This document shows, piece after piece, positions 1-18,898 of a stretch of DNA of 26,634 nt. This DNA comes from a virus. Its lineage: Duplodnaviria > Caudoviricetes. Each line of letters starts with the position of its first letter. Position 1 is the stretch's first letter. The position numbers and the translations under genes were made by a program. Under the pieces are notes generated by a model. The model saw nothing but the letters and a program-made list of their open reading frames with translations. It searched no databases and was not told where the DNA came from. Location of the stretch: IMG/VR virus record IMGVR_UViG_3300021371_000090, positions 1-26,634 of that record. One strand, 5' to 3'.

Positions 1-91
1 GGTTAGCGGGGGAAAGGTGGAGACCGAAAGTGCGATATCCTAGAACTTCACCTTTGAGGGTTTTGGCATTGCCTTGATTTAATAGCTTCAT
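1..91 (-). CDS. N-terminus of a phage protein, GP88-like family (truncated by window edge)
   Basis: Not in ORF track. ATG at 91 reads MKLLNQGNAKTLKGEVLGYRTFGLHLSPAN... open to position 1. Resembles N-termini of GP88-like phage proteins (from memory). Promoter-like sequence just upstream. Confidence 0.6.
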   Translation of the reverse strand, partial: MKLLNQGNAKTLKGEVLGYRTFGLHLSPAN

Positions 92-100
92 AACGAAAGG

Positions 101-128
101 ATTTTGTCAGGTTTAGGTTCGGGTGCAA
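101..128 (-). promoter_or_regulatory. sigma70-like early promoter
   Basis: TTGCAC-N16-CAAAAT, 9 nt before ATG at 91. Shares CTTGCACCC with the promoter at 2881-2909. Confidence 0.55.
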
Positions 129-186
129 GTATATTTTAAATGTTTTTTTATTATTATTTAATGCTTGACAGAGAGCGGAATCCCCG

Positions 187-261
187 TAACTTGTTGATTG
201 ATAACGAGTTAGGCGGCTGCGCCCGCCCCCGCTCGCTAACTCATTGATATTCAATGACTTA
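187..261. repeat. Paired 25-bp palindrome cassette 1
   Basis: TAACTTGTT-GATTGAT-AACGAGTTA (187-211), 25-bp spacer with 23 G/C, TAACTCATT-GATATTC-AATGACTTA (237-261). Confidence 0.9.
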
Positions 262-286
262 GAGTGTTTATTTTTTTATTATTGAC

Positions 287-325
287 AAAAGAAAAACCCC
301 GCCCCCCATGCAGAGGGGACGAGGC
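287..325 (-). terminator. Intrinsic terminator after DUF932 gene
   Basis: Minus strand CCTCGTCCCCT-CTGCAT-GGGGGGCGGGG followed by TTTTTCTTTT, ~20 nt after the stop. Confidence 0.8.
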
Positions 326-346
326 TTGCTATGTCTACCCAAAAAT

Positions 347-1144
347 TTATGCAGGGAGAACTAGGGCTGATTCTCTATCCTCATTTGATATAACCGCAGG
401 GGTAAAATCGGCTGACTTGTCAAAAACAGATTGCATACGCATGGTGCGATTTGATATATCATGCGATCCAATACCCTTCAAAGATTCTGTCACGGCATTA
501 TAAAGAGTCCAAAGAGACCCCCCTTTAAACTCCTCATGACGAGGATTGTGGAATTCCTGAAGAGCATCTACAGCTCTTTTATTCCCGAAAACCTTGTCAT
601 TGAAAAGGTCTAAAACAAGTTTGGAAGCATCTTTAACTTCCGTGTTTTTATACTTGTTTATCCGATTTTCCATGGCGGTCCAATGAGAAGTCACTTGAGA
701 AATGGCGGAGGTGATCCGATTGTAAAGATCATTCATAATGTAAGTAGTATGCTTGCGGGCTAGGGTGACATCGCTAGAAAAGCAGAGGTTATCACAAACC
801 AACATTTGATTACCGACTGCAATTCCTGCAGCTAGGGACTTGTCGTGAGAATTACGAAGGCCAAGGACAAGCTGGCGATCTTGAGAGTGACACTCTCGCT
901 TTGGATCTCCGTTCTCATCCAAAAAACTCTCCCCCCTAAGAGCGAACCCTCCGAAGTAGCGTTGTGAACCATGGGAAAGGCCGTGCTCTTCATTGATGAT
1001 TTCAAGGCCAGAATCACCTATGGCTTTTCTGGTCATATCAACCAACTCGTGGTGAGCGATTGGAGTGTGGGTTTGGGTTGGCTTTGGAGTCTCGACTTTA
1101 GAAAGGACTTCAGAGCTGACTTTGTTTTTTGCGTAGATAAGCAT
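347..1144 (-). CDS. DUF932-family protein
   Basis: 265 aa with LRNSHDKS...LVCDNL...RKHT and C-terminal SLWTLYNAVTE motifs typical of DUF932 phage/plasmid proteins. Has its own promoter and terminator. Confidence 0.8.
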   Translation of the reverse strand: MLIYAKNKVSSEVLSKVETPKPTQTHTPIAHHELVDMTRKAIGDSGLEIINEEHGLSHGSQRYFGGFALRGESFLDENGDPKRECHSQDRQLVLGLRNSHDKSLAAGIAVGNQMLVCDNLCFSSDVTLARKHTTYIMNDLYNRITSAISQVTSHWTAMENRINKYKNTEVKDASKLVLDLFNDKVFGNKRAVDALQEFHNPRHEEFKGGSLWTLYNAVTESLKGIGSHDISNRTMRMQSVFDKSADFTPAVISNEDRESALVLPA

Positions 1145-1163
1145 AATTTTAGTTTGGTTAAAC

Positions 1164-1216
1164 CGAGAGATTGTCTCTCGACAGGGGGATTATGACAGAA
1201 AATAATTTAGAAACAA
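1164..1216 (-). promoter_or_regulatory. sigma70-like promoter plus 5'-UTR hairpin of DUF932 gene
   Basis: TTGTTT-N16-CATAAT (1216-1189) with TGn extension. Hairpin CGAGAGA-CAA-TCTCTCG (1180-1164) lies right after the predicted start site. Confidence 0.6.
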
Positions 1217-1381
1217 GACCTTTTTTATACTTTTTTAATCTTTTTTTTCGGGCTAAGAATGCCAAATATTCTTGCAAATAAACTTGATTAAGGTTGCTTA
1301 GGTTAGAGACAAATATGCCAAATATATATTGACATGGCGCTTGCAATCTGATGATTTTTAATTTAAGCGCAAAAAGAAGCC

Positions 1382-1455
1382 TAACTCACTGATACACAAC
1401 GAGTTAGGCGGTTGAGTGGGGCGCGGCCCGTAACTCCTTGATACACAGGGAGTTA
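1382..1455. repeat. Paired 25-bp palindrome cassette 2
   Basis: TAACTCACT-GATACAC-AACGAGTTA (1382-1406), 24-bp spacer with 20 G/C, TAACTCCTT-GATACAC-AGGGAGTTA (1431-1455). Confidence 0.9.
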
Positions 1456-1671
1456 GATGTCCATGTGCTCTGCGATTTTTTTATTGCCACGCCAAGCATG
1501 CCAGCCCTCCACGGATATGCCAGAGCAGTAGTCGGCCTTAGCGTCCCCCTCGGAGAGATTTAGCCAAGCGATCTGTGAGGCTTTTTCGGAAGCGGCCTTG
1601 GGAGAGCGCGACATGGCGACTCCTGTGTAAACCCCTGTGCTGGCGACTATGTAGTAGCTGAATTTGTACAT
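1453..1671 (-). CDS. hypothetical protein (72 aa)
   Basis: ORF directly preceded by a leaderless promoter. Its stop codon lies in palindrome 2b. Confidence 0.7.
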   Translation of the reverse strand: MYKFSYYIVASTGVYTGVAMSRSPKAASEKASQIAWLNLSEGDAKADYCSGISVEGWHAWRGNKKIAEHMDI

Positions 1672-1677
1672 GAGGGG

Positions 1678-1706
1678 AGAGTAACGGAAGAATTTATTTT
1701 TGGCAA
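1678..1706 (-). promoter_or_regulatory. sigma70-like leaderless promoter
   Basis: TTGCCA-N17-TACTCT-N6-ATG(1671). Confidence 0.7.
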
Positions 1707-1717
1707 TATATTTCTAC

Positions 1718-1743
1718 AAAAAAAAAGCTCCCTTTCGGGAGCC
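1718..1743 (-). terminator. Intrinsic terminator
   Basis: GCTCCC-GAAA-GGGAGC followed by T9 on the minus strand. Confidence 0.85.
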
Positions 1744-1763
1744 TTGAAAAGCGATTAATTAGA

Positions 1764-1943
1764 TCACTTAGTGTTTTCTGGAGTGGGGTCAGGCGTGGAG
1801 GCTTCCGCGATACGGGCGAGACGCTCGTCCTCCGCTTGCCACTCGCGATAATCCTCCTCAGAGAGTTGCTCGCGTACCTTGCGGTATCCGTCATATTGTG
1901 CTTGCAGGGCTTCCCAGTCGGTGGTGGTATGTATATTAAACAT
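1764..1943 (-). CDS. hypothetical acidic protein (59 aa; start re-called to ATG 1943)
   Basis: MFNIHTTTDWEALQAQYDGY... bounded by a promoter and a terminator. Confidence 0.7.
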   Translation of the reverse strand: MFNIHTTTDWEALQAQYDGYRKVREQLSEEDYREWQAEDERLARIAEASTPDPTPENTK

Positions 1944-1949
1944 GGCCGA

Positions 1950-1977
1950 AGGGTACAAAAACTGTAGGGTATGGCAA
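1950..1977 (-). promoter_or_regulatory. sigma70-like leaderless promoter
   Basis: TTGCCA-N16-TACCCT-N6-ATG(1943), with an A-rich UP-like tract upstream. Confidence 0.65.
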
Positions 1978-2004
1978 GCTTTTTTATTTATTTTTTTAAA
2001 GCTA

Positions 2005-2079
2005 TAAGTGACTGATTAGTAGTGAGTTAGCGGTCGGGGTCGGGGCTTCGCTCCTAACTCGTTGCTGATAAGTGAGTTA
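2005..2079. repeat. Paired 25-bp palindrome cassette 3
   Basis: TAAGTGACT-GATTAGT-AGTGAGTTA (2005-2029), 25-bp spacer with 20 G/C, TAACTCGTT-GCTGATA-AGTGAGTTA (2055-2079). Confidence 0.9.
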
Positions 2080-2201
2080 TAAGCCATTCTCAAAGAGAAA
2101 ATTAAATTTATTTAGCAATCCTGTTGCATAAGCAGTGAAAAGAAGTAATGCAAGCAAAAGGGCTAAAATTATTTGTTTTTTATTCATGCTAATTCTGTTT
2201 T

Positions 2202-2236
2202 AAAAGAGAACCCGCCCCCCACCACAGGGGACGGGC
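2202..2236 (-). terminator. Intrinsic terminator, homologous to 287-325
   Basis: CCCGTCCCCT-GTGGT-GGGGGGCGGG followed by TTCTCTTTT. Confidence 0.8.
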
Positions 2237-2254
2237 TATACACACAACACACCA

Positions 2255-2554
2255 TTAAAAAAGAGTTTTCACCATTTGAATCGCGGTAGCGAAGCGGCCT
2301 TTCACTTTGGTGATACCTGCAACGTGGAGAGTGCGGAACTTGCGCTCCCCTGCGTCATCAAGGTCGCGGGTGGCAGCGATAACATAACGCTTGCCATTGG
2401 ATTCTGCGAACCCGTCCAGCTGGATTTCTTCCACGAGGAAGCTTCTGATACCGTCAGACTTGACGGTGCTTTGCCCTGCATTGGCGTAGGTGACTACGCG
2501 CTTGTTAAGCTTAGATGCAAGGGCGGTGGGGGCTAGTGTATATAGGTTTTTCAT
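2255..2554 (-). CDS. hypothetical protein (99 aa), possible WYL/SH3-like fold
   Basis: Clean ORF, last gene of a three-gene unit before a terminator. Beta-rich pattern. Confidence 0.7.
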   Translation of the reverse strand: MKNLYTLAPTALASKLNKRVVTYANAGQSTVKSDGIRSFLVEEIQLDGFAESNGKRYVIAATRDLDDAGERKFRTLHVAGITKVKGRFATAIQMVKTLF

Positions 2555-2564
2555 CAGGGGTATT

Positions 2565-2708
2565 TTAAAGGTTTTGAGAGATCTTGTCGAGGATATTTCG
2601 GCGGTTTTCTGCTTTTATTTTTTGATCTTGCTCCCACTCCCGAAGCTCAAGGTTTCCAGCGATTACCATGAGCAGAGTGAGGCCAGAGAGGCAGAGAAAG
2701 GTTTTCAT
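2565..2708 (-). CDS. small membrane-anchored protein (47 aa; start re-called to ATG 2708)
   Basis: MKTFLCLSGLTLLMVIAG hydrophobic N-terminus, then a charged helix. Starts 1 nt after the upstream stop. Confidence 0.65.
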   Translation of the reverse strand: MKTFLCLSGLTLLMVIAGNLELREWEQDQKIKAENRRNILDKISQNL

Positions 2709-2709
2709 A

Positions 2710-2874
2710 TTACTTAGAGGATTTGATGAGGAGTTTGGCGATCTTGTTGCTAACAGAAAGCATCCTGCGAGTTGGATTAACTGGCATTCCCTTGAATTCT
2801 GAATCAAAACGGTAGGAGAGAAGCTTGCGAGCTTGGGACTTGAGTTCCTTCTGGTATTCTTGTTGCTGTGTCAT
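2710..2874 (-). CDS. hypothetical basic protein (54 aa; start re-called to ATG 2874)
   Basis: MTQQQEYQKELKSQARK... directly after a consensus promoter. Confidence 0.7.
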   Translation of the reverse strand: MTQQQEYQKELKSQARKLLSYRFDSEFKGMPVNPTRRMLSVSNKIAKLLIKSSK

Positions 2875-2880
2875 GTGAGA

Positions 2881-2909
2881 AGTATAGTTGAATTTTGGGT
2901 TGGGTGCAA
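2881..2909 (-). promoter_or_regulatory. sigma70-like leaderless promoter
   Basis: TTGCAC-N17-TATACT-N6-ATG(2874). Confidence 0.8.
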
Positions 2910-2935
2910 GCACTTTTTAATCTTTTTTTAATTTA

Positions 2936-3037
2936 AATTCGTAGCATATTTCTGCGAGGGCTATGCCAGACCCACGACCCTTCCTTATTTAACGTCTTGC
3001 GGATCGCTTAACCGTGTTTATACTCACTTGACGAATC
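2936..3037 (-). ncRNA. candidate structured RNA (unassigned family)
   Basis: Intergenic. Closing stem ATTCGT/ACGAAT encloses GTG/CAC, GCGATCC/GGGTCGT and TGGCATA/TATGCTA stems. G-U pairs favour the minus strand. Confidence 0.4.
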
Positions 3038-3277
3038 TTAGTCGCACCCATACTGAGCGAAACTTCCGAAAGCAAACTCCATATCTGCGTCTATCTTATC
3101 ACGAGGGATAATCATTTTCTTGCCATAGTCTGGGTTAGGAACTTTCTTACCATCAACCCTCATCTCTCTCCAAGGGTTAAGTTTAAAGTAGTTCTCTCCG
3201 TCAAACTCTAATTGCATAGAGCCAGTGGCCCAATCGTGGATTCTCTTTTCTTTTGCTTGTGGTGTTTCTTTAGTCAT
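3038..3277 (-). CDS. hypothetical protein (79 aa)
   Basis: ATG start, tight operon spacing. Confidence 0.7.
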   Translation of the reverse strand: MTKETPQAKEKRIHDWATGSMQLEFDGENYFKLNPWREMRVDGKKVPNPDYGKKMIIPRDKIDADMEFAFGSFAQYGCD

Positions 3278-3289
3278 CTTATTTTTTGT

Positions 3290-3514
3290 TTACTTGCCGT
3301 AGATCCAGCGAAGCTCACTGCTCCACTCCTTAACCATCTTTGCTTCGTGTCCGTTGGGATTTTTACAAGCGGCACCGATCCATTTCCTGATCATGCGCTT
3401 GAGCTTTCGCTCCCTAAGCCATTCACCTAAGTGAATACCAATGGCGAAAGGGTAAGTGAGAATTAGAATGGCTTTGCCCTTGGTGTCTTGGTCTTTGAAG
3501 TTATGTAAGTTCAT
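3290..3514 (-). CDS. hypothetical protein (74 aa) with one hydrophobic segment
   Basis: AILILTYPFAIGIHL segment; operon spacing. Confidence 0.7.
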   Translation of the reverse strand: MNLHNFKDQDTKGKAILILTYPFAIGIHLGEWLRERKLKRMIRKWIGAACKNPNGHEAKMVKEWSSELRWIYGK

Positions 3515-3531
3515 AGTGTTAGTGTAAAGAT

Positions 3532-3681
3532 TTATTTTTTGTAGTAGTTCGGGACTACCTCATTCCAGTTGGTGGGATTAGCCTTCCGCTCTTCTTCACG
3601 CTTAACGGTTTCCTTGTAAAGATTTTTGCTAGCTTCTCTAACTCTCTCTTCGTAGGTGCGGCCTGTGTTGTTTGCTGTCAT
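3532..3681 (-). CDS. hypothetical protein (49 aa), not in ORF track
   Basis: MTANNTGRTYEERVREASKNLYKETVKREEERKANPTNWNEVVPNYYKK*, with TATAAT 6 nt upstream. Confidence 0.7.
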   Translation of the reverse strand: MTANNTGRTYEERVREASKNLYKETVKREEERKANPTNWNEVVPNYYKK

Positions 3682-3687
3682 GTGGGT

Positions 3688-3722
3688 ATTATAGATTAAA
3701 AATTGATTTAAAAAAAGCTTTT
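3688..3722 (-). promoter_or_regulatory. sigma70-like leaderless promoter
   Basis: TATAAT-N6-ATG(3681); weak -35 within an AAAAGCTTTT palindrome. Confidence 0.6.
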
Positions 3723-3732
3723 TCTTCTATTA

Positions 3733-3933
3733 TTATGCATTTATTTCAGGGTGTTCTATAACCTCATCATCGTAGATAATCCCGTTCAGGTATGGGTCTG
3801 TCTGTATACCGCCAGTATATTCTTTACCCTCATAAGTGAAAGCTACTAAGTGAGTAGCCCAGCAACCATCTTGCTCAACTACTTCTCCAAACTCTATTGA
3901 GTCCTTAACTTCGCCATAGGTGATCTCTTTCAT
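3733..3933 (-). CDS. hypothetical acidic protein (66 aa)
   Basis: ORF with TATAAT 6 nt upstream. Confidence 0.7.
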   Translation of the reverse strand: MKEITYGEVKDSIEFGEVVEQDGCWATHLVAFTYEGKEYTGGIQTDPYLNGIIYDDEVIEHPEINA

Positions 3934-3939
3934 GGGGGA

Positions 3940-3974
3940 ATTATATACTTAGATAAGATTTTTTAAAAGCTTTT
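3940..3974 (-). promoter_or_regulatory. sigma70-like leaderless promoter
   Basis: TTTTAA-N17-TATAAT-N6-ATG(3933); same AAAAGCTTTT palindrome at the -35 region. Confidence 0.6.
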
Positions 3975-4105
3975 TCTGTATAAAAATGCATTTTTTTAGC
4001 TGCAGAGGGGGAGGGTTTTTTCAGAATTTTGAACTTTTAAGTTGACTGGATTTCGGCGGGGGGGTGGTGTATTCTATAAACAAGTGGCCAATAGGGAGTT
4101 TATGC

Positions 4106-4111
4106 GTGTAA
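4106..4111 (+). promoter_or_regulatory. GTGTAA putative phage late promoter element
   Basis: 12 nt before the phoH ATG; recurring motif. Confidence 0.5.
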
Positions 4112-4123
4112 CAAATAACACAA

Positions 4124-4804
4124 ATGACGTTTGGAAATAAAAACTCATTATTGTTGGGTCATATAGAATTGACAGAGAAACAAAGTAAATTTCATAAGAT
4201 AATGCGTAACCCTGAAACAAGGGTTGTATTTATTAGTGGGCCAGCGGGGACTGCGAAGACATTTTTGTCAGTATATACGGCGTTATATAAATACAATGAG
4301 GACAATCTGCTTAATATATTATATTTGAGGAGTTTAGCTGAGAGTGCGGATAAGGGGATGGGTTTTCTGAAGGGGAGTATGGATGAGAAGTTCAATCCGT
4401 ATTTGGGTCCGTTAGAAGATAAATTGGATGAATTATTAAATGGTCCAGAAAAAAAACAAATACAAGACAGGAAAGTGTTAGAAGCGGCCCCGATTAACTT
4501 TTTGAGGGGTGCTACATGGAAAAACAAGGTAGTTATAGTAGATGAGGCACAAAATATGACAACAAGAGAACTTACAACTATCATAACCCGCATTTCAAGT
4601 AACACTACGTTATTTTTATGCGGAGATACGATGCAAAGTGATATTAGGTCTTCTGGTTTTAATAAATTCTGTAGAGTGTTTGATGATGACGAAAGCAAAT
4701 CGTTTGGGATACATCATTTAGAATTTAGTAAAGAAGACGTTATGAGAGATAAAATCATAAGTTATTTAGTAGATAAAATTGAAAAAAGTGAAATAAAACA
4801 ATAA
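4124..4804 (+). CDS. phoH: PhoH-like ATPase
   Basis: GPAGTAKT Walker A, MGFLKGS, FLRGATW, IVDEAQN, TR, GDTMQSD motifs. Confidence 0.93.
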   Translation: MTFGNKNSLLLGHIELTEKQSKFHKIMRNPETRVVFISGPAGTAKTFLSVYTALYKYNEDNLLNILYLRSLAESADKGMGFLKGSMDEKFNPYLGPLEDKLDELLNGPEKKQIQDRKVLEAAPINFLRGATWKNKVVIVDEAQNMTTRELTTIITRISSNTTLFLCGDTMQSDIRSSGFNKFCRVFDDDESKSFGIHHLEFSKEDVMRDKIISYLVDKIEKSEIKQ

Positions 4805-4812
4805 AATTAGCC

Positions 4813-5178
4813 ATGAATAAGATTTTCTGTGTATCTTGTGGTTTTAAGATCTTATATGAGGTCACCAAACCTAAATTTTGCCCTAGCTGTGGGAATAGCT
4901 TAGGTTCCGTTTCTTCTGCGGCCAAAAAAGAAGAAGGAGAAGAGGTTTCTGATCTTGATATTGATTTGAATAAGTTAAAAAGAGATATTATTGTCGAGAA
5001 CGATAAGCGAAAAACAAAAATTGAGGATATTTGGGGTTCTGTTACTTCGTCTGAAGCTAATAGCCCTCAAGATGGTTTTTCTCGACCTGAATCAAAAGAT
5101 CCTAGTGGTAAAGAGCTACTAGATAAGACTATTAGGGATTGTTCATCATCTCGTATGAAAGATATAGATGGAGAATGA
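4813..5178 (+). CDS. zinc-ribbon domain protein
   Basis: FCVSCG...KFCPSCG, two CxxC pairs at the N-terminus. Confidence 0.75.
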   Translation: MNKIFCVSCGFKILYEVTKPKFCPSCGNSLGSVSSAAKKEEGEEVSDLDIDLNKLKRDIIVENDKRKTKIEDIWGSVTSSEANSPQDGFSRPESKDPSGKELLDKTIRDCSSSRMKDIDGE

Positions 5179-5845
5179 TTTTGAAAGTCAGAGACTAGAT
5201 TTAGAAGACCTTTTAAAGAAGTATAGACCTAAGTGGCAATTAAGTGCCATAGCTTGGATGGATTATGATGATGTGTGTCAGATAATCCGATTACATATTT
5301 TTAAAAAGTGGCATCTTTGGGATCAGAATCGCCCATTTAAGCCTTGGGCTTCTATGATTATATCTAATCAGATTAAAAACCTGATTCGGAATAATTACTC
5401 TAGTTTTGCTAAGCCTTGTTTAAGGTGTCCTCATAATATGGGTTCAGATAGTTGTGCTTTAACAAGAAGCAAGGAGCAAGATATAAGTTGTCCTGATTTC
5501 AATAAATGGAAGAATAAAAAAGAAAAAGCTTATAATATCAAGCTACCATTAGCTTTAGAAGAGGGATCATTTACAGGGACGACTTCATTGAAGGATCATC
5601 TTGATTATCAAGATTCGTCTGAACGACTTCATGAATTAGTTATGGGAGAATTGAATGAGAAACATAAAAAGATCTATTATCTTCTTTATGTAAAGAATGA
5701 GGATGAGAATAAAGTGGCAGAACAATTTGGGTTTAAAGCAGACTCCGTGAAGAGAAAAAAACCTAGATACAAACAAATAGCGAATTTAAAAAAGAAATTT
5801 TATCAAATTGCGGTTAGAATTATGAAGGATAACGATATTTTATGA
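5168..5845 (+). CDS. phage RNA polymerase sigma factor (sigma70 family, ECF-sized)
   Basis: Region-2-like DYDDVCQ...WD..RPFKPWASMIISNQIKNLIR and region-4-like LNEKHKKIYYLLY...KVAEQFG helix-turn-helix. Confidence 0.8.
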   Translation: MENDFESQRLDLEDLLKKYRPKWQLSAIAWMDYDDVCQIIRLHIFKKWHLWDQNRPFKPWASMIISNQIKNLIRNNYSSFAKPCLRCPHNMGSDSCALTRSKEQDISCPDFNKWKNKKEKAYNIKLPLALEEGSFTGTTSLKDHLDYQDSSERLHELVMGELNEKHKKIYYLLYVKNEDENKVAEQFGFKADSVKRKKPRYKQIANLKKKFYQIAVRIMKDNDIL

Positions 5846-6903
5846 ATGATATAGAGTTAACAGACAAACAAAAACAAAAAATCGAGGCTGAGTTTGAAAA
5901 AAACCCCGATTTAAAACATATTACGCAAGTTGTATTTGGTAATAACTCATTAGATGGTCGTTCTAAGGAGGGAAGGTGTGTGAGGGCGTTTTTAATCACG
6001 AAAAGTTTAGATTTCACTACAACTCTTGCGCCGAAGGCAGAAGAAGTTGATCTAACAAGCGAACAAAAGCAATTTTTGATGGGGAATAATGTTGAAAGAG
6101 GGATGAACGCTCTTGAGGTCGCTCGTTTAACGTTTAAGGATAGGGAAATTCAACCCTTAAGCCAACAACATAGGACAGTAATGGAATATTTACGTCGATA
6201 CAGGCCAGAAATTGTTGATGACAACGAAATGTTAACTACAGACAAGTGGTTGTCGCCAAAATCTCTATCTAAATCAATCAAAAAGGTAAATGAGTGGGCT
6301 GGACAGAACTTTGACGAAGTAACGATTCAGACCAAACAGAAAAAAATGTGCGAAAAGCTACTTTTCTACCTTAAAAGTCCTAGATTCGTTCATTTTATAA
6401 ATCAATACTCAACAATAGCAGATAGAGACTTATTTGAAAGTGAATTTGTCAGAACAGTTTGGGATAAGCCAGATTTGACTAACGATGAGTTAAATTTGTA
6501 TATTACTGTTTGCACGAACTATGTAAGACAGAAACATATTCAACAAAGAATCGATAAGTTGAACACGATGCTCAACGATACCGATAATGAGCGAGATTTA
6601 ACATTACGTCTTACTGAGCTTATAAAGGCCACTAGCGAGGAGTTGAATCAATGTGAGAAAAGAATAGAATCTTTGACAAAAGACCTTAACGGAAGCCGTC
6701 AGGCGCGTTTAAAGGCAAGAGGAGAGCAAAACGGTAGTATTGCGGCGTTAGTTGAAGCTTTTCAGGAAAAAGAGGAGCGAGAGCGCATGATTTTGATGGC
6801 TGAGATGCAAAACAAGCTAATTGAAGACGAAGCGGATCGGCTTGAGTCTATGGACGAATACAAGGCTCGTATATTAGGAATATCCAAGAAGGAGATTTTA
6901 TGA
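5842..6903 (+). CDS. hypothetical coiled-coil protein (possible terminase small subunit)
   Basis: 353 aa, helical with C-terminal coiled coil. ATGA overlaps on both sides. Two genes upstream of TerL. The TerS role is positional inference only. Confidence 0.5.
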   Translation: MNDIELTDKQKQKIEAEFEKNPDLKHITQVVFGNNSLDGRSKEGRCVRAFLITKSLDFTTTLAPKAEEVDLTSEQKQFLMGNNVERGMNALEVARLTFKDREIQPLSQQHRTVMEYLRRYRPEIVDDNEMLTTDKWLSPKSLSKSIKKVNEWAGQNFDEVTIQTKQKKMCEKLLFYLKSPRFVHFINQYSTIADRDLFESEFVRTVWDKPDLTNDELNLYITVCTNYVRQKHIQQRIDKLNTMLNDTDNERDLTLRLTELIKATSEELNQCEKRIESLTKDLNGSRQARLKARGEQNGSIAALVEAFQEKEERERMILMAEMQNKLIEDEADRLESMDEYKARILGISKKEIL

Positions 6904-7853
6904 GTAAATTTGAATGTCTAGAATGTGGTAAAGAGTTTGACAGCAAAAGAAGTTTTCATGCTCATCTAAAAGCTCATGCCCTAACTATAGGAGATTACTA
7001 CGTAAAAAATTATGACAAGAGAGATTTATATACAAATGAAAAACTTGCTTTCAGATCTTACGATCAATATATGCGTGACAATTTTAATAATCATTCTAAT
7101 TTTATATCGTGGGTGGGATCTGCTCCAGCGGAGATTGTTAAAGACTATATTAAACAAAGAACTATAGAGAAGTTCAAACTAAAAGAAATTAAGGTATCAC
7201 CCCCGAATCTATTTTATGATTTGTCAGAAATGGCAAACATATTCTATTATAAAAAGTTTTGGGGATCGTATTCAAATTTTTTAAAAGAATTAGAGGTAGA
7301 ACATTATTTTAATAAGAACTTGCCGCCAAAGTTTTGGGATGAGCCTCATCAAGATATCCCAATGTTCACGGACACTAGGGAGAAAGCGCCATTAACATTT
7401 AAGGACTCTTTAACCAATAAATTGGACTTTGGAGACTATACTGCCAGAGGAGACTTATATACCAAGACGTTTGTGGACAGGAAGGCTCAAGATGATTTCA
7501 GACAGACGTTTGGGAAAGATATAGATCGTTTTAGAAGAGAAATGGATCGGTGTGTTGAATTTAACTCATACATGTTCGTTGTTGCTGAAACCTCAATAGA
7601 TAAATTAGAAGAACACAATAAAACCTCAAAGTTTAAATCAAACTTAAGTTACTTGTGGCATAACGTAAGAAATCTAATTATAGATTATCCGAAAAACCTT
7701 CAGATAGTTTTCGCCCACAACCGAGCTGGAGCTAAAAAACTCATTCCATTGATATTATATCATGGAACGGATTTGTGGAGAGTAGATTTACAATATTTCA
7801 TAGATAAAAGAATAAATGGCTTGGAACAAAGGAAAACAGGGATTTCGGCTTGA
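6900..7853 (+). CDS. C2H2 zinc finger + ERCC4 (XPF/Mus81)-like nuclease
   Basis: FECLECGKEFDSKRSFHAHLKAH finger; DTREK...LDFGDY...VDRKAQDD...RFRRE nuclease motifs. Confidence 0.75.
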   Translation: MSKFECLECGKEFDSKRSFHAHLKAHALTIGDYYVKNYDKRDLYTNEKLAFRSYDQYMRDNFNNHSNFISWVGSAPAEIVKDYIKQRTIEKFKLKEIKVSPPNLFYDLSEMANIFYYKKFWGSYSNFLKELEVEHYFNKNLPPKFWDEPHQDIPMFTDTREKAPLTFKDSLTNKLDFGDYTARGDLYTKTFVDRKAQDDFRQTFGKDIDRFRREMDRCVEFNSYMFVVAETSIDKLEEHNKTSKFKSNLSYLWHNVRNLIIDYPKNLQIVFAHNRAGAKKLIPLILYHGTDLWRVDLQYFIDKRINGLEQRKTGISA

Positions 7854-9708
7854 TCACTCCTCTCAGGAACTCAATGATTCGTTAAAGGAGATAGATGGCG
7901 CAATCAAAGAGGAGGAAGCTAAATATCTACTATATAAATTTTTAAGGAATAATATAGCTTTTACTTCTGAGTTATTTTTAGGGGTGAAGTTATTCCCATT
8001 CCAAGCGATGGCTATCAAGGGCATGATGGTATCGGATTACTCCATGTTCGTATTCTCGCGAGGCATGTCTAAAACGTTCTCTACGGCGGTCTACGTATTG
8101 ATGGAGTGCCTACTTAATCCCAATGCAAACATTGGTGTTATCGCGGGTAGCTTTAGGCAATCAAAACAAATTTTCCAAAAAATGGAAGATATTGTTAGCA
8201 AACCTGAAGCTAGTCTAATCAAGGAGTGTGGATTCAAAATTCAGAAGGGAACCGATCAATGGACAATGACTTTAGGTAAATCTAGGGCGATAGCCCTGCC
8301 TCTAGCTAATGGAGAAAGGCTTCGTGGATTTCGTTTTAATCGGATTGTATTGGATGAGTTCTTAACTATCCCAGAAAAGATTTTTAACGAAGTTATTATA
8401 CCATTTCTTGGTGTGGTAGAAAATCCTATCGAGAGGGAAGAACTATACAATCTAGAATCCAGAGTAATCGACAAAGGCGAGATGAAAGAACAGGATAGAT
8501 ACGTATGGCCTAACAACAAGCTTATCATCTTATCATCTCCATCTTTTAAATTTGAGTATATGTATAAATTATACAAAAAATATGAAGATCTTATATTTGG
8601 GCAAGGTGAGGAGCAAGATCAAGAAGAAGAGGGTTTTAAAGACGATGCTTACAGACTGATTATGCAGTTGAGTTATGATTGTGCTCCAACGAGATTATAT
8701 GATCAAAACCTACTTAAGCAAGCTAAAGCTACAATGTCAGAGATGCAGTTTAAAAGGGAGTTCGGCGCACAATTTATTGATGAGAGTGACGGTTATTTCA
8801 GATTGTCAAAAATGGCTGCTTGTACAATAGCTGATGGAGAATTTCCTGCTGTAGAGGTTGTTGGTAACCCTAGCGATGAATATATACTCGCTTTTGACCC
8901 CAACTGGGCTGGGAATACGAGTGCTGACCATTTTGCCATGCATGTCTTCAAAATTGATAGAGACGCTCAGAAGATCTGCTTAGTTCATAGTTATGCAATT
9001 GCAGGTGTTTCTCTCAAGCAACATATGGAATATTTTTTATACCTTATACAGTATTTTAATATTGTTGGTATATGCGGAGACTACAATGGGGGAGTGCAAT
9101 TTATCAATTCATGTAATGAGAGTGCTTTGTTTAAAGAGGCGAAAATAAAAATTGGGGTTATCGAGGTCGATCTAGAAAAACCTGAGAATTGGAACTCAGA
9201 TATTTTAAGCTTTAAAAATCAATATAATTTAAGGGAACGCAATTATTGTATATTAAGGAAGCCAACGTCTAATTGGATTCGGAATGCTAACGAGATGTTA
9301 CAAGCTGCTATAGACCATAAAAGAATACTATTTGCTTCTAGGGCTATAGATTCTCATTTTGATTCACAAAGGAAAAAGAATATACCTATAGATAAGATTA
9401 AATGGGATATCAAAACACCAAAGGCATCCAAAGGGGCCATGATGATTGATCTGATTGATCATCAAAAGTATGTAGTAGAACTTACAAAGTCTGAATGCGC
9501 TAACATTGAGGTCATAGGGAACCCGCAAGGATCACAGGCGTTTAACTTGCCTCAAAATTTAAGAAGACAAAAAGGCCCGAATAGAGCTAGAAAAGACTCT
9601 TATTCTTCTTTAGTTTTAGGAAATTGGTTTGCAAAAGTATTTTTTGATTCAGAAAATGCTTCAGTAGAACAAAAACCTGAGTCCACTTTTATTCCATTTG
9701 CAATTTAA
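7816..9708 (+). CDS. terL: terminase large subunit
   Basis: PFQ adenine motif, SRGMSKT Walker A, LRG, IVLDE Walker B, SSP motif III, F.REF, RNase H-like AFDP...D and C-terminal KD. Confidence 0.92.
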   Translation: MAWNKGKQGFRLDHSSQELNDSLKEIDGAIKEEEAKYLLYKFLRNNIAFTSELFLGVKLFPFQAMAIKGMMVSDYSMFVFSRGMSKTFSTAVYVLMECLLNPNANIGVIAGSFRQSKQIFQKMEDIVSKPEASLIKECGFKIQKGTDQWTMTLGKSRAIALPLANGERLRGFRFNRIVLDEFLTIPEKIFNEVIIPFLGVVENPIEREELYNLESRVIDKGEMKEQDRYVWPNNKLIILSSPSFKFEYMYKLYKKYEDLIFGQGEEQDQEEEGFKDDAYRLIMQLSYDCAPTRLYDQNLLKQAKATMSEMQFKREFGAQFIDESDGYFRLSKMAACTIADGEFPAVEVVGNPSDEYILAFDPNWAGNTSADHFAMHVFKIDRDAQKICLVHSYAIAGVSLKQHMEYFLYLIQYFNIVGICGDYNGGVQFINSCNESALFKEAKIKIGVIEVDLEKPENWNSDILSFKNQYNLRERNYCILRKPTSNWIRNANEMLQAAIDHKRILFASRAIDSHFDSQRKKNIPIDKIKWDIKTPKASKGAMMIDLIDHQKYVVELTKSECANIEVIGNPQGSQAFNLPQNLRRQKGPNRARKDSYSSLVLGNWFAKVFFDSENASVEQKPESTFIPFAI

Positions 9709-9709
9709 A

Positions 9710-9715
9710 GTGTAA
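9710..9715 (+). promoter_or_regulatory. GTGTAA putative late promoter
   Basis: GTGTAA-N8-ATG(9724). Confidence 0.65.
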
Positions 9716-9723
9716 TAAAAAAT

Positions 9724-10563
9724 ATGCCTTTAGATCCTAATATTACAGGTGCATGGGATGTTGGAGCCAACAGAAATTTAGGAATCCCATTTAATTATGT
9801 GTGGGATAGATCTAAATCTTATTGGAAGCCAATGGATTTAGGAGATTTGGGGTCTTATTCTGATAAGGTCAACGCAGGTGCTAATGACAGAGTCTTAAAG
9901 TTTGGATCAAACCCAAATATACCAAATGATGTCAGTCTTTCCTCTCCAGAAACAGTTTGGGACGGCTCTACAGAATATGTGTTTCCTCCTGACGTTGGAA
10001 CAGGTATTCAGGTTAAATCTGCTAATGGTGGAGATAGTCAAGAAATTATCATTCAAGGATTAGATGAGAGTTTTAATTCTGCAAGTTGGACTGGCGACTT
10101 AAATGGGGCATCTGAAGTGAATGTGGATGGAACTTGGTCTAGGGTCTTTAGGGCTTTCAATAATGATAATACTGATTTTGCGGGAGATATCAATATTCAT
10201 GCAAGCGGAGATGATAGCACTTCTTATGCGAAAATACTTAGTGGAAATAACCAAACTTTAATGGCAGTTTATACTGTCCCAGAAAGCGCAACAGGTTATT
10301 TAATTCAATATGAAGCTTCTGCTCAAAATACTGCCAGTTCATCAAGCATAGGTTACACTTTACATTTAAAAACAAGAGAATACGGCAAAGTTTTTAGGGT
10401 GCAAGAAGTTACTTCTGTCACTACAGAAAATTCTCATGCACAAGAATTACAGGTTCCTATTACTCTTGAGCCAAAAACAGATGTTTTAGTAAATGTTATC
10501 AATGCTAATGGTAATAATGGTTCTGTAAACGCTGATTTTAGTATAGCTTTACATTCAAGTTGA
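9724..10563 (+). CDS. hypothetical beta-rich protein, possibly virion-associated
   Basis: 279 aa rich in G/S/N/T, between terL and portal. Confidence 0.6.
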   Translation: MPLDPNITGAWDVGANRNLGIPFNYVWDRSKSYWKPMDLGDLGSYSDKVNAGANDRVLKFGSNPNIPNDVSLSSPETVWDGSTEYVFPPDVGTGIQVKSANGGDSQEIIIQGLDESFNSASWTGDLNGASEVNVDGTWSRVFRAFNNDNTDFAGDINIHASGDDSTSYAKILSGNNQTLMAVYTVPESATGYLIQYEASAQNTASSSSIGYTLHLKTREYGKVFRVQEVTSVTTENSHAQELQVPITLEPKTDVLVNVINANGNNGSVNADFSIALHSS

Positions 10564-10592
10564 AAAGTTTCAAAGTAACTTTTATAACTTTA

Positions 10593-10598
10593 GTGTAA
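10593..10598 (+). promoter_or_regulatory. GTGTAA putative late promoter
   Basis: GTGTAA-N8-ATG(10607). Confidence 0.65.
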
Positions 10599-10606
10599 AC
10601 TTTCAT

Positions 10607-12562
10607 ATGCCTCGTAAATATACCAAGAGATCAGAGTATTGGGAAAAGTTCAATAAGAAAAAAATTCCACTTGAAAACCTACTCCAGCCTCAAGAGGAGG
10701 GTTTTCAGCCAGAACTAATTGGAGAACCTGTTTTCAGCTCAGAGTCGTCTCGCTTAGACTCTCCTACAGCTAGAACGAAAGCTCGTACCAATGCGGTTGC
10801 CACTTCAGGCTTTAGCAATAAATTTGAGAATATCAAGAGTGGCATATTGCCATTTAACTACGAAAAAGATTCTGCAGATGCAAAAGAGGCTGTAGAGCTT
10901 TGTCAAAAAGCTTATTTTAATATTTCTTCATTTAAAGGAACGATTGACCTTTTATCAGAGTTTGCTGATTCAGAGTTGTATTTAGAAGGAGGCACTGAAA
11001 AATCAAAAAAATTTATTGATGCTTGGTTCAAAAGAATCAAGATGCATGATTTAAAACAACAATACTTCCGAGAATATTACCGTTCAGGAAATGTTTTTTT
11101 GTATCGGGTAGATGGAAAAATTCCACTTAAGAATTCTCAAAAAATGCTAGAAGCTTATGGAGCTAGCTCAAGAAAAGAGATACCAATTAGATATTTGCTA
11201 ATTAATCCTACAGACATTGCAACCAAGGGTTCTGTTTCATTTAGCGGTTATGAATATTTTAAAGTATTATCCCCATTTGAAATTTCTCGATTACAGAAAC
11301 CTGAGACAGATCATGAGTTAGAGATGTTCAAATCTTTGCCAGAGGACGTTCAACAAGCTCTTAAATCAGGAAAGAACGCTTATGCAATGACTAGAGTTCA
11401 AATTAAACTTGACCCACAACTCTTGCATGTTGTGTTTGCTAAAAAACAAGATTATGAGCCATTAGCTATTCCTCTCGGTTATTCTGTTCTTGATGACCTC
11501 AACAGAAAGATTGAATTGAAAAATATTGATCAAGCGATAAGTCGCTCTATTGAAAACGTTGTCTTGCTTGTTACCATGGGTAATGAACCAGATAAAGGGG
11601 GGGTTAATCACCGCAACCTAGCTGCGATGCAGCAGATCTTCAAGAATCAAAGCGTTGGTCGGGTTCTTGTTTCTGACTATACAACAAAAGCAGATTTTAT
11701 CATTCCAGATATTCGGAAGGTCGTAGGCCCAGAAAAATACGAAGTCTTAAACAGAGATATTGAGCAGGGTTTACAGAATATTCTTATAGGAGAATCCAAA
11801 TATTCAGATACTCAAATCAAAATGAAGGTTTTCTTCCAGAGATTAGAAGAGTCTCGTAGAGCCTTCCTAAATGACTTTATTAATCCTGAGATCAGAAGAA
11901 TATGCAAGGCTGCTGGTCTTCGTTCTTGGCCCGAAGCTAAATTTGCTCATACAGACACTATGGACGACAATAATTTGTCAAAGCTTGCTACAAGACTTAT
12001 GGAGCTAGGAGTCCTCACTCCAGAACAGGGGATGAAGGTGGTTCACACTGGAGTTTTCCCTCAAGCTGCTGAGATGCAGGAGGCTCAAGATAAATTTAAA
12101 GAAGAGCGTGAAAAAGGACATTACATGCCTCTTGTTAATACTATTAATTTATATAACGAAGAACAAGAAGATGATTCTGAACCTAGCCAGCCTAAAGCTA
12201 TTTCTCCATCTGGTGGGAGACCGATTGGAGTATCTAACTCCTCTTATTCAAAGAAAAATATCGTAGAAGCAACTAAAAAAATTAATGAGCTTGAAATATT
12301 GGCATTTAGAGAATTCGCTTCAAAGTTTGGACTTAAAAGAATGTCAAAGCAAAAGAAAGAAATGGTAACCCAAGTATGTGAATCTATTGTTATTGCTAAA
12401 GATAGTGCTGATTGGGAATCCACTTTATCTGAAATAGTTCAAGATTTAGACAAATTATCTTCTCTCGCGGTAAATCAAAAGGTTTTAGAATTAGGCTGTC
12501 AACATCAATTAGATGACTTAGCTTCAGCAATTTTATATCATTCAACTCAAATTTCTGTGTAA
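10607..12562 (+). CDS. portal protein
   Basis: 651 aa between terL and protease. REYYRSGNVF, LLNP-like and GRP tail motifs; helical clip/stem pattern typical of portals. Confidence 0.8.
   Translation: MPRKYTKRSEYWEKFNKKKIPLENLLQPQEEGFQPELIGEPVFSSESSRLDSPTARTKARTNAVATSGFSNKFENIKSGILPFNYEKDSADAKEAVELCQKAYFNISSFKGTIDLLSEFADSELYLEGGTEKSKKFIDAWFKRIKMHDLKQQYFREYYRSGNVFLYRVDGKIPLKNSQKMLEAYGASSRKEIPIRYLLINPTDIATKGSVSFSGYEYFKVLSPFEISRLQKPETDHELEMFKSLPEDVQQALKSGKNAYAMTRVQIKLDPQLLHVVFAKKQDYEPLAIPLGYSVLDDLNRKIELKNIDQAISRSIENVVLLVTMGNEPDKGGVNHRNLAAMQQIFKNQSVGRVLVSDYTTKADFIIPDIRKVVGPEKYEVLNRDIEQGLQNILIGESKYSDTQIKMKVFFQRLEESRRAFLNDFINPEIRRICKAAGLRSWPEAKFAHTDTMDDNNLSKLATRLMELGVLTPEQGMKVVHTGVFPQAAEMQEAQDKFKEEREKGHYMPLVNTINLYNEEQEDDSEPSQPKAISPSGGRPIGVSNSSYSKKNIVEATKKINELEILAFREFASKFGLKRMSKQKKEMVTQVCESIVIAKDSADWESTLSEIVQDLDKLSSLAVNQKVLELGCQHQLDDLASAILYHSTQISV
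12557..12562 (+). promoter_or_regulatory. GTGTAA putative late promoter overlapping portal stop codon
   Basis: GTGTAA-N8-ATG(12571). Confidence 0.6.
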
Positions 12563-12570
12563 GACTTAAT

Positions 12571-14070
12571 ATGTTATTGGATGATTTTAACATTTGCTTA
12601 TTTAAAGGAAGAGTAAGAGAGATTAAAAACGAAGAGTTTGAATCATTTGGGCTTTCCCAAGGTTCCCTTCAAGAAGCTGCAGAATCTTTACTGCCAGAAG
12701 ATTTTAATCCAGAAGAAAATATAGATGTTTTACCTGTTGTATTTAACTTGGCGAAGGTAAACGAGTTTAATAAAAATGGAGACGGTATTGACGCCAAAAC
12801 CGCCATTGCTGCTGTTAAACGTTTTATTAACAAGCCAATTAATATTGAACACAAAAAAGACAAAATTGTTGGACATATGATTAATGCTTCATTCTCTGAT
12901 AAGGAGTTTGACTTCAAGGATAATGATATTGAATCCTATGCAGATAAAAAAGAACCGTTTTATATTAATGCAGCTGGATTGATATATAAATCAGTCTTCC
13001 CAGAATTAGCTGAAGCGATTGTAGAGGCTTCAGAAGAGGAAGATGCATCTTATCAAAGTATTTCTACTAGCTGGGAATTAGCATTTAAAGAATTTGAAGT
13101 AGCTGTTGGTTCTAAGTATCTAAATGAATCTAGTATAGCAGAAGGGGCTGAAAAAGAAGACTTGAAGCAATATATTAGAGGGTTAGGAGGCAAGGGAGTC
13201 GATCAAAATGGCAACCCTGTCAATCGATTAATTGTAGGTCAAACTTATCCTTTGGGAGCTGCATTAACTAAAAATCCTGCAGCAGCAGTGACAGGAGTTT
13301 ATACAACACAAGAAGACCCAATAAACAAAAAAGTAGAAAAAATTTCCCGAAATAGTAATATTAATGTAAAGTCAAACAAATTAAAAAGTATTTTTAATAT
13401 GGATAACGAACAATTTGATCAATTAATCTGTCAGTTGACCAAGAGTGTTGCTTCTGCTGTGAAGGAAGGCTCTGAGGCTAAAACTGTTAGCGAAAGTATC
13501 CGAGATACTCTCGTAGAACACAACGAGTCTTGGACTTCCAAGATGCAAGTTGAACAGGAAGCTAAGGCTAAGGCTGAAGCTGAGCTTAGTGAGTTGCAAG
13601 ACTCTTTTAAGCAAACAAAAGAAGAACTAGATGCTCTTAAGGGCGAGGTTGAAGCAAAAGCTGCTGTTGACCTTTTCAATGACCGCATGAATTTTATTGA
13701 TAGCGATTATGACCTTAACGAGAAAGAACTCGCTTTGGTTACAGCTGAAGTTAAGGATCTAGGTTCTTCCGAAGAAGATTTTAATTCCTATAAGGATAAG
13801 CTTGAAGTTATTTTTGCTCATAAGCTCAAGAAAAATATTGAGGCTAAAGAAGCAGAGATTAAAGCTCGTATCGACGAAGCTGTCGCTAGCCGCGAAGAGG
13901 GTGATGAACCCGAAGAAGAGGCAGCTGACGAAGAAGAGTCGGAAGAAGAGCTTGAAGTCGAGGGAGATGAAGCAGAAGCTTCTATTCCGAATAATAACGC
14001 TGAAGCAAGCGAACAGATTTCTTTTGTCGAGAGACTCAAGAAGAACTTCTCAGTAGAAGTTGCAAACTAA
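12571..14070 (+). CDS. prohead protease / scaffold fusion
   Basis: N-terminal NKNGD...INIEH...STSWE protease-like motifs; acidic coiled-coil C-terminal half; located between portal and capsid. Confidence 0.75.
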   Translation: MLLDDFNICLFKGRVREIKNEEFESFGLSQGSLQEAAESLLPEDFNPEENIDVLPVVFNLAKVNEFNKNGDGIDAKTAIAAVKRFINKPINIEHKKDKIVGHMINASFSDKEFDFKDNDIESYADKKEPFYINAAGLIYKSVFPELAEAIVEASEEEDASYQSISTSWELAFKEFEVAVGSKYLNESSIAEGAEKEDLKQYIRGLGGKGVDQNGNPVNRLIVGQTYPLGAALTKNPAAAVTGVYTTQEDPINKKVEKISRNSNINVKSNKLKSIFNMDNEQFDQLICQLTKSVASAVKEGSEAKTVSESIRDTLVEHNESWTSKMQVEQEAKAKAEAELSELQDSFKQTKEELDALKGEVEAKAAVDLFNDRMNFIDSDYDLNEKELALVTAEVKDLGSSEEDFNSYKDKLEVIFAHKLKKNIEAKEAEIKARIDEAVASREEGDEPEEEAADEEESEEELEVEGDEAEASIPNNNAEASEQISFVERLKKNFSVEVAN

Positions 14071-14091
14071 AAAAATTAAATATTATATATT

Positions 14092-14724
14092 ATGGCTAAC
14101 GAAATTACACGTTTAATGCCGTTTCGTCAATACGACGAGAATGATGTTATTAACTTCTATTCTCTCGATGCTGAAACAGGTGAAGCGGGTTCTGTTGTTA
14201 AGGTAAGCGCTGCTAACCTTAGTGATGAGCCTGTCAAGTATGTTGGGCGAGGCGATGCAGACTCGTATCAATCTACTCTAGGTAAGGGTCTTTCCCTCTA
14301 TCCAGAAGTTCCTTATAAGGTCACTAAAATGGCCGCTACTGGTGCTGGAGAAAAAGCTCTTGGGATTCTTTTGCGCGATGTCCGTGCGAAGGACGAAAAC
14401 GGAGAAAACCTTCTATACTACCCAGAAAAGAAGGAAGAACTTCAGTGTGTTGTATCTGGTGAAGCGGTTCCTATCGCGACTAAAGGTATTTTCACTATCA
14501 ACGTCAATGGTCTTACCAATGGTGTTGCTCCTTCTGTTAACGATTTTGCTTTACCATCTCTGAATGGAACTATCACTGGTATTACTAGTGCTACTCCTGC
14601 AAAACATGCTGAGCATAGGAATCACCATATCGGAACCTTTATTGGCACTGGTCTCAGAGAGTCTCAAGGTGGGACTACTGATGCTTTCGCAGGTGCTTAT
14701 GCAATCCTTAAACTTAACTGCTAA
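14092..14724 (+). CDS. putative capsid decoration/cement protein
   Basis: 210 aa G/A/T-rich protein immediately upstream of the MCP, with highly biased codon usage. Confidence 0.6.
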   Translation: MANEITRLMPFRQYDENDVINFYSLDAETGEAGSVVKVSAANLSDEPVKYVGRGDADSYQSTLGKGLSLYPEVPYKVTKMAATGAGEKALGILLRDVRAKDENGENLLYYPEKKEELQCVVSGEAVPIATKGIFTINVNGLTNGVAPSVNDFALPSLNGTITGITSATPAKHAEHRNHHIGTFIGTGLRESQGGTTDAFAGAYAILKLNC

Positions 14725-14736
14725 TAACTTACGAAA

Positions 14737-15876: not shown

Positions 15877-15895
15877 TCAACCTGATGTTACTTAT

Positions 15896-15934
15896 AAAGA
15901 GAGTCGCTCCAAAAGGGGCGGCTCTTTTTTTTTT
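15896..15934 (+). terminator. Intrinsic terminator after MCP
   Basis: AGAGTCGCTCC-AAAA-GGGGCGGCTCT followed by a long T run. Confidence 0.9.
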
Positions 15935-15961
15935 GATTTTTATCTAAATTTTAACTATTAT
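15933..15961 (+). promoter_or_regulatory. sigma70-like leaderless promoter
   Basis: TTGATT-N17-TATTAT-N5-ATG(15967). Confidence 0.55.
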
Positions 15962-15966
15962 GTATT

Positions 15967-16881: not shown

Positions 16882-16882
16882 T

Positions 16883-18851: not shown

Positions 18852-18855
18852 ATTT

Positions 18856-18871: not shown

Positions 18872-18898
18872 ACCTTTACATTTTTAACTTAAAATCTT

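Follow-up and report, generated by a model that had tools for sequence, protein, structure and literature searches.

Among described systems close in layout are the Mu Pe and lambda pL promoters, IHF-stimulated phage promoters in which an IHF-type site precedes a sigma-70 early promoter, on one face of the helix, and which provide the model for activation by folded upstream DNA or by exclusion of silencers. A similar arrangement is predicted in a 26,634-bp stretch of DNA from an uncultured marine phage (Caudoviricetes; IMG/VR record IMGVR_UViG_3300021371_000090, positions 1 to 26,634; here referred to as the window, a 26.6-kb virus record), in which 25-bp palindromic units occur in closely spaced pairs within a region of small early genes. 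It differs from Mu Pe and lambda pL in that the module is repeated 5 to 10 times, doubled, and symmetric, lies at variable distances from the promoter, and is carried by a phage without an integrase. The units resemble IHF sites, such as the lambda H' site (PDB 1IHF), in all nine specified positions, purine-only R positions, a W at the dyad, and kink steps 9 bp apart. Known IHF sites, however, lack symmetry and have an A-tract opposite the consensus arm, whereas here the consensus is mirrored, the units form rigid pairs around a GC-rich spacer, and the binding is predicted.

Other systems share individual features. T4-type PeSL cassettes (PMC4122927, PMC2839356) have in common with this locus the repeated intergenic terminator-promoter elements, a hyperplastic region of small genes, and some exchanges at repeats. 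A PeSL comprises a stem-loop, a promoter, and a Shine-Dalgarno sequence, with no mention of IHF in PMC4122927; here, in contrast, we see a predicted double-stranded protein site and leaderless-looking transcripts, most breaks fall elsewhere, and promoters are 26 to 195 bp away. In the type I-F CRISPR leader (10.1101/2023.05.26.542337), a pair of IHF sites gives a short DNA segment a defined fold, as we propose here, but that fold serves Cas1-2/3 and is associated with inverted repeats and a CRISPR repeat, none of which are seen at this locus. Phage T5 (10.1101/866236) shares ~10 kb of small early genes, a possible long terminal repeat, and conserved noncoding sites for host proteins; it has one complex repeat region with DnaA boxes, whereas here the sites are dispersed with one pair per operon, and a terminal repeat is suggested by sequencing depth. 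We found no paper describing the element, in a literature search that did not extend to most subscription journals.

Paired palindromes in an early gene island

The six units reported in the initial annotation are all present, as three pairs: units 1a (187 to 211) and 1b (237 to 261), 2a (1382 to 1406) and 2b (1431 to 1455), and 3a (2005 to 2029) and 3b (2055 to 2079). The pair spacings are 50, 49, and 50 bp, with spacers of 25 bp (212 to 236; 92% GC), 24 bp (1407 to 1430; 83% GC), and 25 bp (2030 to 2054; 80% GC). A symmetric weight matrix scores the six units at 26.0 to 33.3 bits and the next best site in the window at 7.0 bits, and the scan of the whole window bears out the absence of units from the structural region. 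With a leave-one-pair-out matrix, the held-out units score 18.1 to 28.1 bits and rank fourth to sixth.

Eighty viral loci were collected by PhoH similarity, without using the motif for selection. Units are present in 44 of these, and in all 39 that have more than 2.3 kb upstream of phoH; 149 of the gaps are exactly 50 bp, duplicates being kept in this count. The units had been described as always paired, and pairs are indeed the rule, although the phoH-anchored loci have 20 triplets and 9 singlets beside 150 doublets. Adding motif-selected loci and whole records gives a larger set of 353 distinct groups and 449 distinct units, in which the spacings around distinct GC-rich spacers are 50 bp (282 cases), 52 (20), 48 (13), 49 (12), 53 (3), 51 (1), and 27 (1). 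The fixed spacing proposed initially thus holds within a lineage and not across lineages: locus L017 has 48 bp in 10 of 10 pairs, and the L239 group has 52 to 53 bp.

Across relatives the unit consensus is TAA-S-TC-N-Y-TGA-nnn-TCA-R-N-GA-S-TTA, and the arms are 11 bp around a 3-bp variable center, rather than 9 bp around a 7-bp core as first described. The center is symmetric (GA-nnn-TC), and its three free bases vary among the units of one genome. Identity in 40 orthologous pairs is 95% for the units and 79 to 85% for the spacers; the flanks were preselected at ≥80% identity in this comparison, and their 93% is therefore inflated. The spacer keeps its length and GC content, but not its sequence. 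The spacer of pair 2 has five substitutions and a 1-base insertion in a strain from one public run (X9).

In six of the seven whole records, the units are confined to one island of small operons, 5 to 11 kb long and adjoining phoH; in the 140-kb relative G003 all are within 114.5 to 124.9 kb. The seventh record, G023, is an unrelated phage and has no units. Loci L059, L088, and L093 match a loose form of the pattern and were rejected as a different repeat; these G023 loci have an array of a different palindrome, TAACTTGACA...TGTCAAGTTA, together with TAACTTTACAC repeats. The usual module order is operon, often a terminator, pair, A-tract, promoter, and next operon, with no pair preceding the first operon. 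We note that one relative (L467; G161:97-108 kb) has 35 units in denser clusters with spacings of 34, 51, and 60 bp. Repeated TATTTG and TAACCT words are present in long noncoding stretches beyond triplets or the last pair in several relatives (L236, L239, L253, G001, and G006).

The element is real and clade-wide, and by its sequence it has the features expected of an IHF site, as set out below. The motif is a marker for this phage clade, and possibly for its host. Public runs containing the window are seawater or marine metagenomes. Among cultured phages, the capsid protein has no match, and a pair query gave 69 short hits, none covering 80%.

The units match the IHF consensus

Read outward from the center, each unit half is the IHF consensus WATCARNNNNTTR, which went unrecognized in the earlier sequence-only reading; this consensus (for Escherichia coli) and the 9-bp kink spacing are given in PMC8421141 and 10.1101/382655. 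In the 898 halves of the 449 distinct units, the consecutive specified positions agree in W 81%, A 47%, T 87%, C 78%, A 100%, R 100%, TT 99%, and R 99.8%, such that position 17 is invariably A, position 18 invariably a purine, positions 23 and 24 are TT in 99%, and position 25 is a purine in 99.8%. At least one perfect WATCARNNNNTTR half is present in 273 of the 449 units and in five of the six window units (1a, 1b, 2a, 2b, and 3a, all on the minus strand); unit 3b has two mismatches on either strand.

The kink steps (Y^T and A^R) are 9 bp apart: T9 and A17 never vary, Y8 and R18 lie next to them, and a W at position 13 is in the middle. From the overlap of two kink-centered dodecamers listed in Table 1 of PMC12854757, the W falls midway between kinks 9 bp apart, and the protein dyad would thus lie on the palindrome center with the kinks on T9 and A17. 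In place of an A-tract opposite the consensus, the units have a mirrored TTR arm; an A-tract is not present in all IHF sites (10.1101/382655). The IHF and H-NS motifs seem to be interchanged in Table 2 of PMC6907758, which we set aside.

Promoters are phased with the units

In the window, each pair is followed on the minus strand by a likely or predicted sigma-70-type promoter, at 58, 165, and 27 bp, in agreement with the 27 to 165 bp to a −35 box that had been noted. The first (101 to 128; −35 TTGCAC at 128 to 123) was found by eye and would serve a gene truncated by the window edge (start 91), whose orthologue in G003 is PF17338 (GP88). The second (1189 to 1216; −35 TTGTTT at 1216 to 1211), also found by eye and missed by our promoter matrix, is likely that of a DUF932 gene. 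The third (1950 to 1977; −35 TTGCCA at 1977 to 1972) was detected by the matrix and has an ATG 6 nucleotides (nt) past the −10 box, and is thus apparently leaderless.

Among relatives, promoters are strongly one-sided, being present in 94 of 154 downstream flanks and 2 of 154 upstream flanks. The distances from unit to −35 box cluster near 27, 38, 48, 59, 71, 83, and 93 bp, and after thinning of related flanks they have a periodicity of 10.6 to 11.5 bp (p ≤ 0.003 at <65% identity, with 68 to 73 flanks; p = 0.001 to 0.028 at <60% identity, with 42 to 49 flanks); these p values allow for the choice of period. Terminator distances are unphased (p = 0.36 to 0.74), with fewer cases (18 to 26 flanks). 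Phasing that persists over such varied distances would fit a bend-dependent action on the polymerase.

Many of the promoters have an ATG 5 to 7 nt after the −10 box, giving leaderless-looking transcripts; in the window these are seen across the island, with the ATG ∼6 nt past the −10 (1941-1977, 2874-2909, 3678-3720, and 3930-3967). A reversed −35-like motif, TGTCAA (165 to 170 in the window), is present in 84 of 154 downstream flanks, clustered at 22 and at 30 to 34 bp from the unit, and has no clear −10 partner.

Candidate binder and host

No HU/IHF gene (PF00216) scores above the cutoff in 27 phage records. Pfam searches with 146 of the 176 open reading frames (ORFs) of the complete relative G003 returned no repressor or helix-turn-helix regulator apart from a sigma factor and the winged helix of RuvB; the hits include the replication and recombination genes RecA, RuvB, SSB, primase, and RNR. 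A scan of 185,579 prokaryote genomes for pairs gave 10 loci in eight metagenome-assembled genomes (MAGs). Three of the 10 are on two 25- to 30-kb phage contigs in one Verrucomicrobiales MAG, and the others are scattered over other phyla. This MAG is a weak hint of the host, which we infer to be a verrucomicrobium.

The single full palindrome is found in 12 of 300 Verrucomicrobiota genomes (32 sites; 2 for the reversed control) compared with two Pseudomonadota genomes and one Bacteroidota genome out of 150 for each phylum (12/300 versus 3/300, Fisher p = 0.03), in a survey that left out the center genomes and in which the sites are clumped in three genomes. A search for the strict palindrome in 40 other genomes of the family of G028 gave three weak single hits. 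The inner bases of the unit are enriched in bacterial chromosomes (187 versus 62 and 406 versus 112). Four of the 16 returned host loci have a palindrome within 10 bp of a tRNA 3' end, and in hand-picked host loci a RepA gene follows one palindrome, a parS-like motif adjoins another, and a third is amid DnaA-box-like motifs; tRNA ends, RepA-upstream regions, and like places are usual settings for IHF. We take the parS-like and DnaA-box-like patterns to be such by their appearance, and no dnaA gene is seen there. Genome G116 (L461:1800-2010, 5947-5992) has 11 palindromes; one of them is surrounded by DnaA-box-like motifs, and another lies 5 bp from a parS-like motif, ahead of argS. Two Verrucomicrobiales genomes have two palindromes 58 bp apart inside 15-bp inverted repeats (L459:1945-2065 and L460:2115-2235), a module that by sequence looks like a small mobile element with the same sites.

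Exactly one HU/IHF gene with an arginine at the position of IHF-beta Arg46, the residue that contacts TTR, is present in 14 of 15 Verrucomicrobiales genomes, and 12 of these 14 also have a parsed HU-type gene, two of the 30 matches in this count not having been parsed. For a related verrucomicrobial protein, single-chain IHF is the best match among solved structures. Arg46 is named as beta-specific in 10.1101/2024.06.24.600358, where homodimerization and specific binding by a lone IHF subunit are an open question for Acidobacteria and Bacteroidetes. With one IHF-beta-like gene and the palindromes as a predicted site, the Verrucomicrobiales would be a ready test of that question, and the palindrome, if the prediction is true, would be the first site demonstrated to be recognized by a sequence-specific homodimer of a lone IHF subunit.

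A proposed role in promoter folding

We propose that the units bind a host IHF-like protein and that each pair bends the DNA in phase with the early promoter that follows, a reading to which we give about an even chance of being right. Each pair would introduce two sharp bends in phase with the promoter and thereby help RNA polymerase to fire. The binder would be a homodimer of the one IHF-beta-like protein of the host, and since a homodimer would read TTR on both arms, a palindrome would be favored. The GC-rich spacer could serve as a stiff linker without sequence demand, and the fold may activate the promoter in one of two ways, by drawing upstream DNA toward the polymerase or by excluding silencers from the A-tracts, as at Mu Pe and lambda pL. 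Incidentally, the phage's RecA would find in the repeats short homology for occasional gain or loss of modules. These considerations suggest that a widespread lytic phage group would build host-made chromatin into its earliest-expressed DNA by a repeated module of fixed geometry. A toy two-kink model gave negative writhe at all spacings, but with only 87 to 114 degrees per site, and was not relied on.

Several observations weigh against this proposal. The consensus A at position 14 is present in only 47% of halves, and 176 of the 449 distinct units have no perfect WATCARNNNNTTR half. For about half of the pairs (142 to 153 of 318) no promoter was detected within 200 bp, with a matrix that also missed two window promoters; where there is one, the pair-to-promoter distance ranges from 26 to about 195 bp. 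With coarser clustering of the flanks, the phasing is at p = 0.05 to 0.2 only, at a period of 10.5 bp. Promoters of the first operon, beside phoH, have no pair, and the genes facing the last pair are often convergent. The 48- to 53-bp spacings cover half a turn of the helix, and hence no single three-dimensional fold would serve all lineages. Most of the small G003 proteins have no family, leaving room for a phage-encoded binder. As to the host, four other MAGs (two Flavobacteriaceae, a Thalassolituus, and an Enterobacterales) each have one contig with a GC-spaced pair, and the half-site is also enriched in a gammaproteobacterial family (the 406 versus 112 above) and is therefore not specific to Verrucomicrobia.

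Alternative explanations

The same IHF-type binder could instead make each pair a roadblock or topological barrier against read-through and supercoil transfer between tandem strong early promoters. There is one pair after each operon, including the last with its frequently convergent neighbors, 48 of the 157 flanks on the upstream side have a terminator within 150 bp, and several genes stop at a unit or no more than 15 bp from one; the TAA stop of the ORF at 1453 to 1671 is formed by the last three bases of unit 2b. IHF has been described as a divider of topological domains (PMC9519438). A pure barrier, however, needs no helical phasing with the downstream promoter, and we consider it unlikely, although a boundary function can coexist with promoter folding.

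It is also conceivable, and improbable to a similar degree, that the island is a long terminal repeat that enters first and that the host IHF-like protein folds the pairs to ratchet, pause, or shield the incoming DNA. Summed contig depth over positions 1 to 4002 relative to 4003 to 20000 is 2.11-fold, 1.83-fold, and 2.16-fold in runs X1, X2, and X5, and a low-depth run (X7) differs in the same direction; outside the island depth does not rise with GC content. The step lies in the stretch from about 3920 to phoH, immediately ahead of the first promoter of the island, whose genes are all directed away from the step. If the difference is real, the island would be a long terminal repeat of the T5 kind, its early promoters directed inward from one end, and the border (3920 to 4123), where contig depth drops about 2-fold, is a candidate for its end. 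The 10-kb terminal repeat of T5, with a proposed protein-bound stop signal (10.1101/866236), is a precedent. However, contig depth is not copy number; shared strains or intracellular replication could produce the same step, and the runs were found with the island as the query. All records are classed as linear and lack end repeats, and no physical end is seen. Moreover, the pairs are distributed one per operon and phased to promoters, rather than gathered at one stop site. The initial suggestion of handles for DNA entry, segregation, or protection thus gains a little from the ∼2-fold depth.

Upstream of phoH, three contigs stop no more than 12 bp past a conserved C-run; this may reflect a branch in the assembly. 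The C-run motif, CACCACCCCCCC (minus strand; G-run at about 4055 to 4069), is 55 to 100 bp before phoH in nearly all of the relatives shown (L199 to L276), and is a candidate terminus or late-promoter element. The end repeats of G002 and G003 are short repeated genes, and the two copies of a 5.7-kb segment in G159, at 96.5% identity, look like a join of two strains; neither provides a test of a terminal repeat. Among the 30 listed of 143 hits, the terminase is 22 to 24% identical to those of cultured phages, and no packaging type can be assigned. A combined scenario, in which an aquatic phage family carries a first-entering terminal repeat with double sites that homodimeric verrucomicrobial IHF folds into serial double U-turns, both switching on early promoters and ratcheting or shielding the genome, would appear unlikely.

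Tandem operators were among the three possibilities raised in the initial annotation, and this is the one that comes closest; the binder, however, resembles an IHF-type architectural protein from the host rather than a phage repressor. A rival reading has the operators bound by a phage-encoded dimeric regulator that silences early promoters through looping or cooperative binding. The perfect dyad symmetry, the conserved inner bases where the IHF consensus has N, the lineage-specific spacing, and the promoter phasing would all fit an operator. Against it, the Pfam hits of G003 include no helix-turn-helix regulator beyond those noted above, the same inner bases are enriched in bacterial chromosomes, and the sites are well upstream of the −35 box, such that we regard phage operators as quite doubtful.

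The first of those possibilities, tyrosine-recombinase core sites that excise or shuffle promoter-gene-terminator cassettes, is largely refuted and has very little probability left. Tyrosine-recombinase core sites have an asymmetric 6- to 8-bp overlap that is identical between partners, whereas the center of the unit is symmetric and its free bases differ within a genome. Integrase (PF00589) is absent from seven records, three of them ≥90% complete, and resolvase (PF00239) from five, although a host enzyme might serve. The predicted concentration of gene-content breakpoints at the pairs is not seen: in alignments of 23 genome pairs, 14 of 110 block ends are in or within 30 bp of a pair, compared with 11.1 expected by length and 20.1 if uniform over noncoding DNA. 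Island genes turn over singly inside modules and are all on one strand with none inverted, and no contig joint over the window ends inside a unit. Eight of the 110 block ends do lie within 3 bp of a pair edge (none inside a unit), and whole modules differ between L272 and L277, L253 and L043, and L223 and L224. PeSLs recur in hyperplastic regions and near indels; here the units are confined to a variable island, and block ends show no overall enrichment at the pairs. The pattern fits occasional homologous exchange through pair-plus-promoter repeats rather than a cassette recombinase, and the RecA and RuvB encoded by the phage (G003) would suffice for it; exchange through repeats has been proposed for PeSLs (PMC4122927).

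RNA or single-strand hairpins acting as 3' stabilizers or terminators are barely credible, for although the units are self-complementary, one scores as a terminator-like hairpin (1409 to 1379), and some are in 3' untranslated regions, pairing of variable positions within the unit is at or below independence (4:22, 0.51 versus 0.57; 8:18, 0.54 versus 0.58) with the sole exception of positions 7:19 (slightly above, p = 0.02), the spacers fold no better than shuffles (mean z, −0.34), and Rfam gave six weak hits (E = 1.6 to 4.7), none near threshold or covering a unit beyond its edge. An apparent pairing of spacer ends across the pair disappeared under within-genome shuffles (p ≥ 0.58). The preference of the initial annotation for a double-stranded protein site is thus supported.

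Gene organization of the window

The window begins with small leftward genes (1 to 3933), followed by phoH, a sigma factor, an ERCC4 nuclease, and the large terminase, with the genes past the terminase taken to be structural. Between pairs 1 and 2, on the minus strand, is the DUF932 gene (347 to 1144; PF06067, E = 9e-10), which has this location in most relatives; with the GP88 module usually following it, DUF932 between two pairs is the most stable part of the island. A terminator-like hairpin (294 to 327, minus strand) lies between the DUF932 stop and pair 1, and another (2209 to 2237, minus strand) is at the end of the operon upstream of pair 3. The remaining island genes (1453 to 3933, minus strand) are small and variable, have no family hits, and are arranged in same-strand operons with leaderless promoters.

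Outside the island, a 279-amino-acid gene (phrog_8198; 9724 to 10563) is located between the terminase and the next large gene. It looks by comparison like an insertion, since the two flanking genes adjoin in G001, G002, and G006. We also note that the complete relative G003 codes for many glycosyl- and sulfotransferases, BspA leucine-rich repeats, DUF285, PATR repeats, a ClpA/B-like ATPase, and Hsp20.

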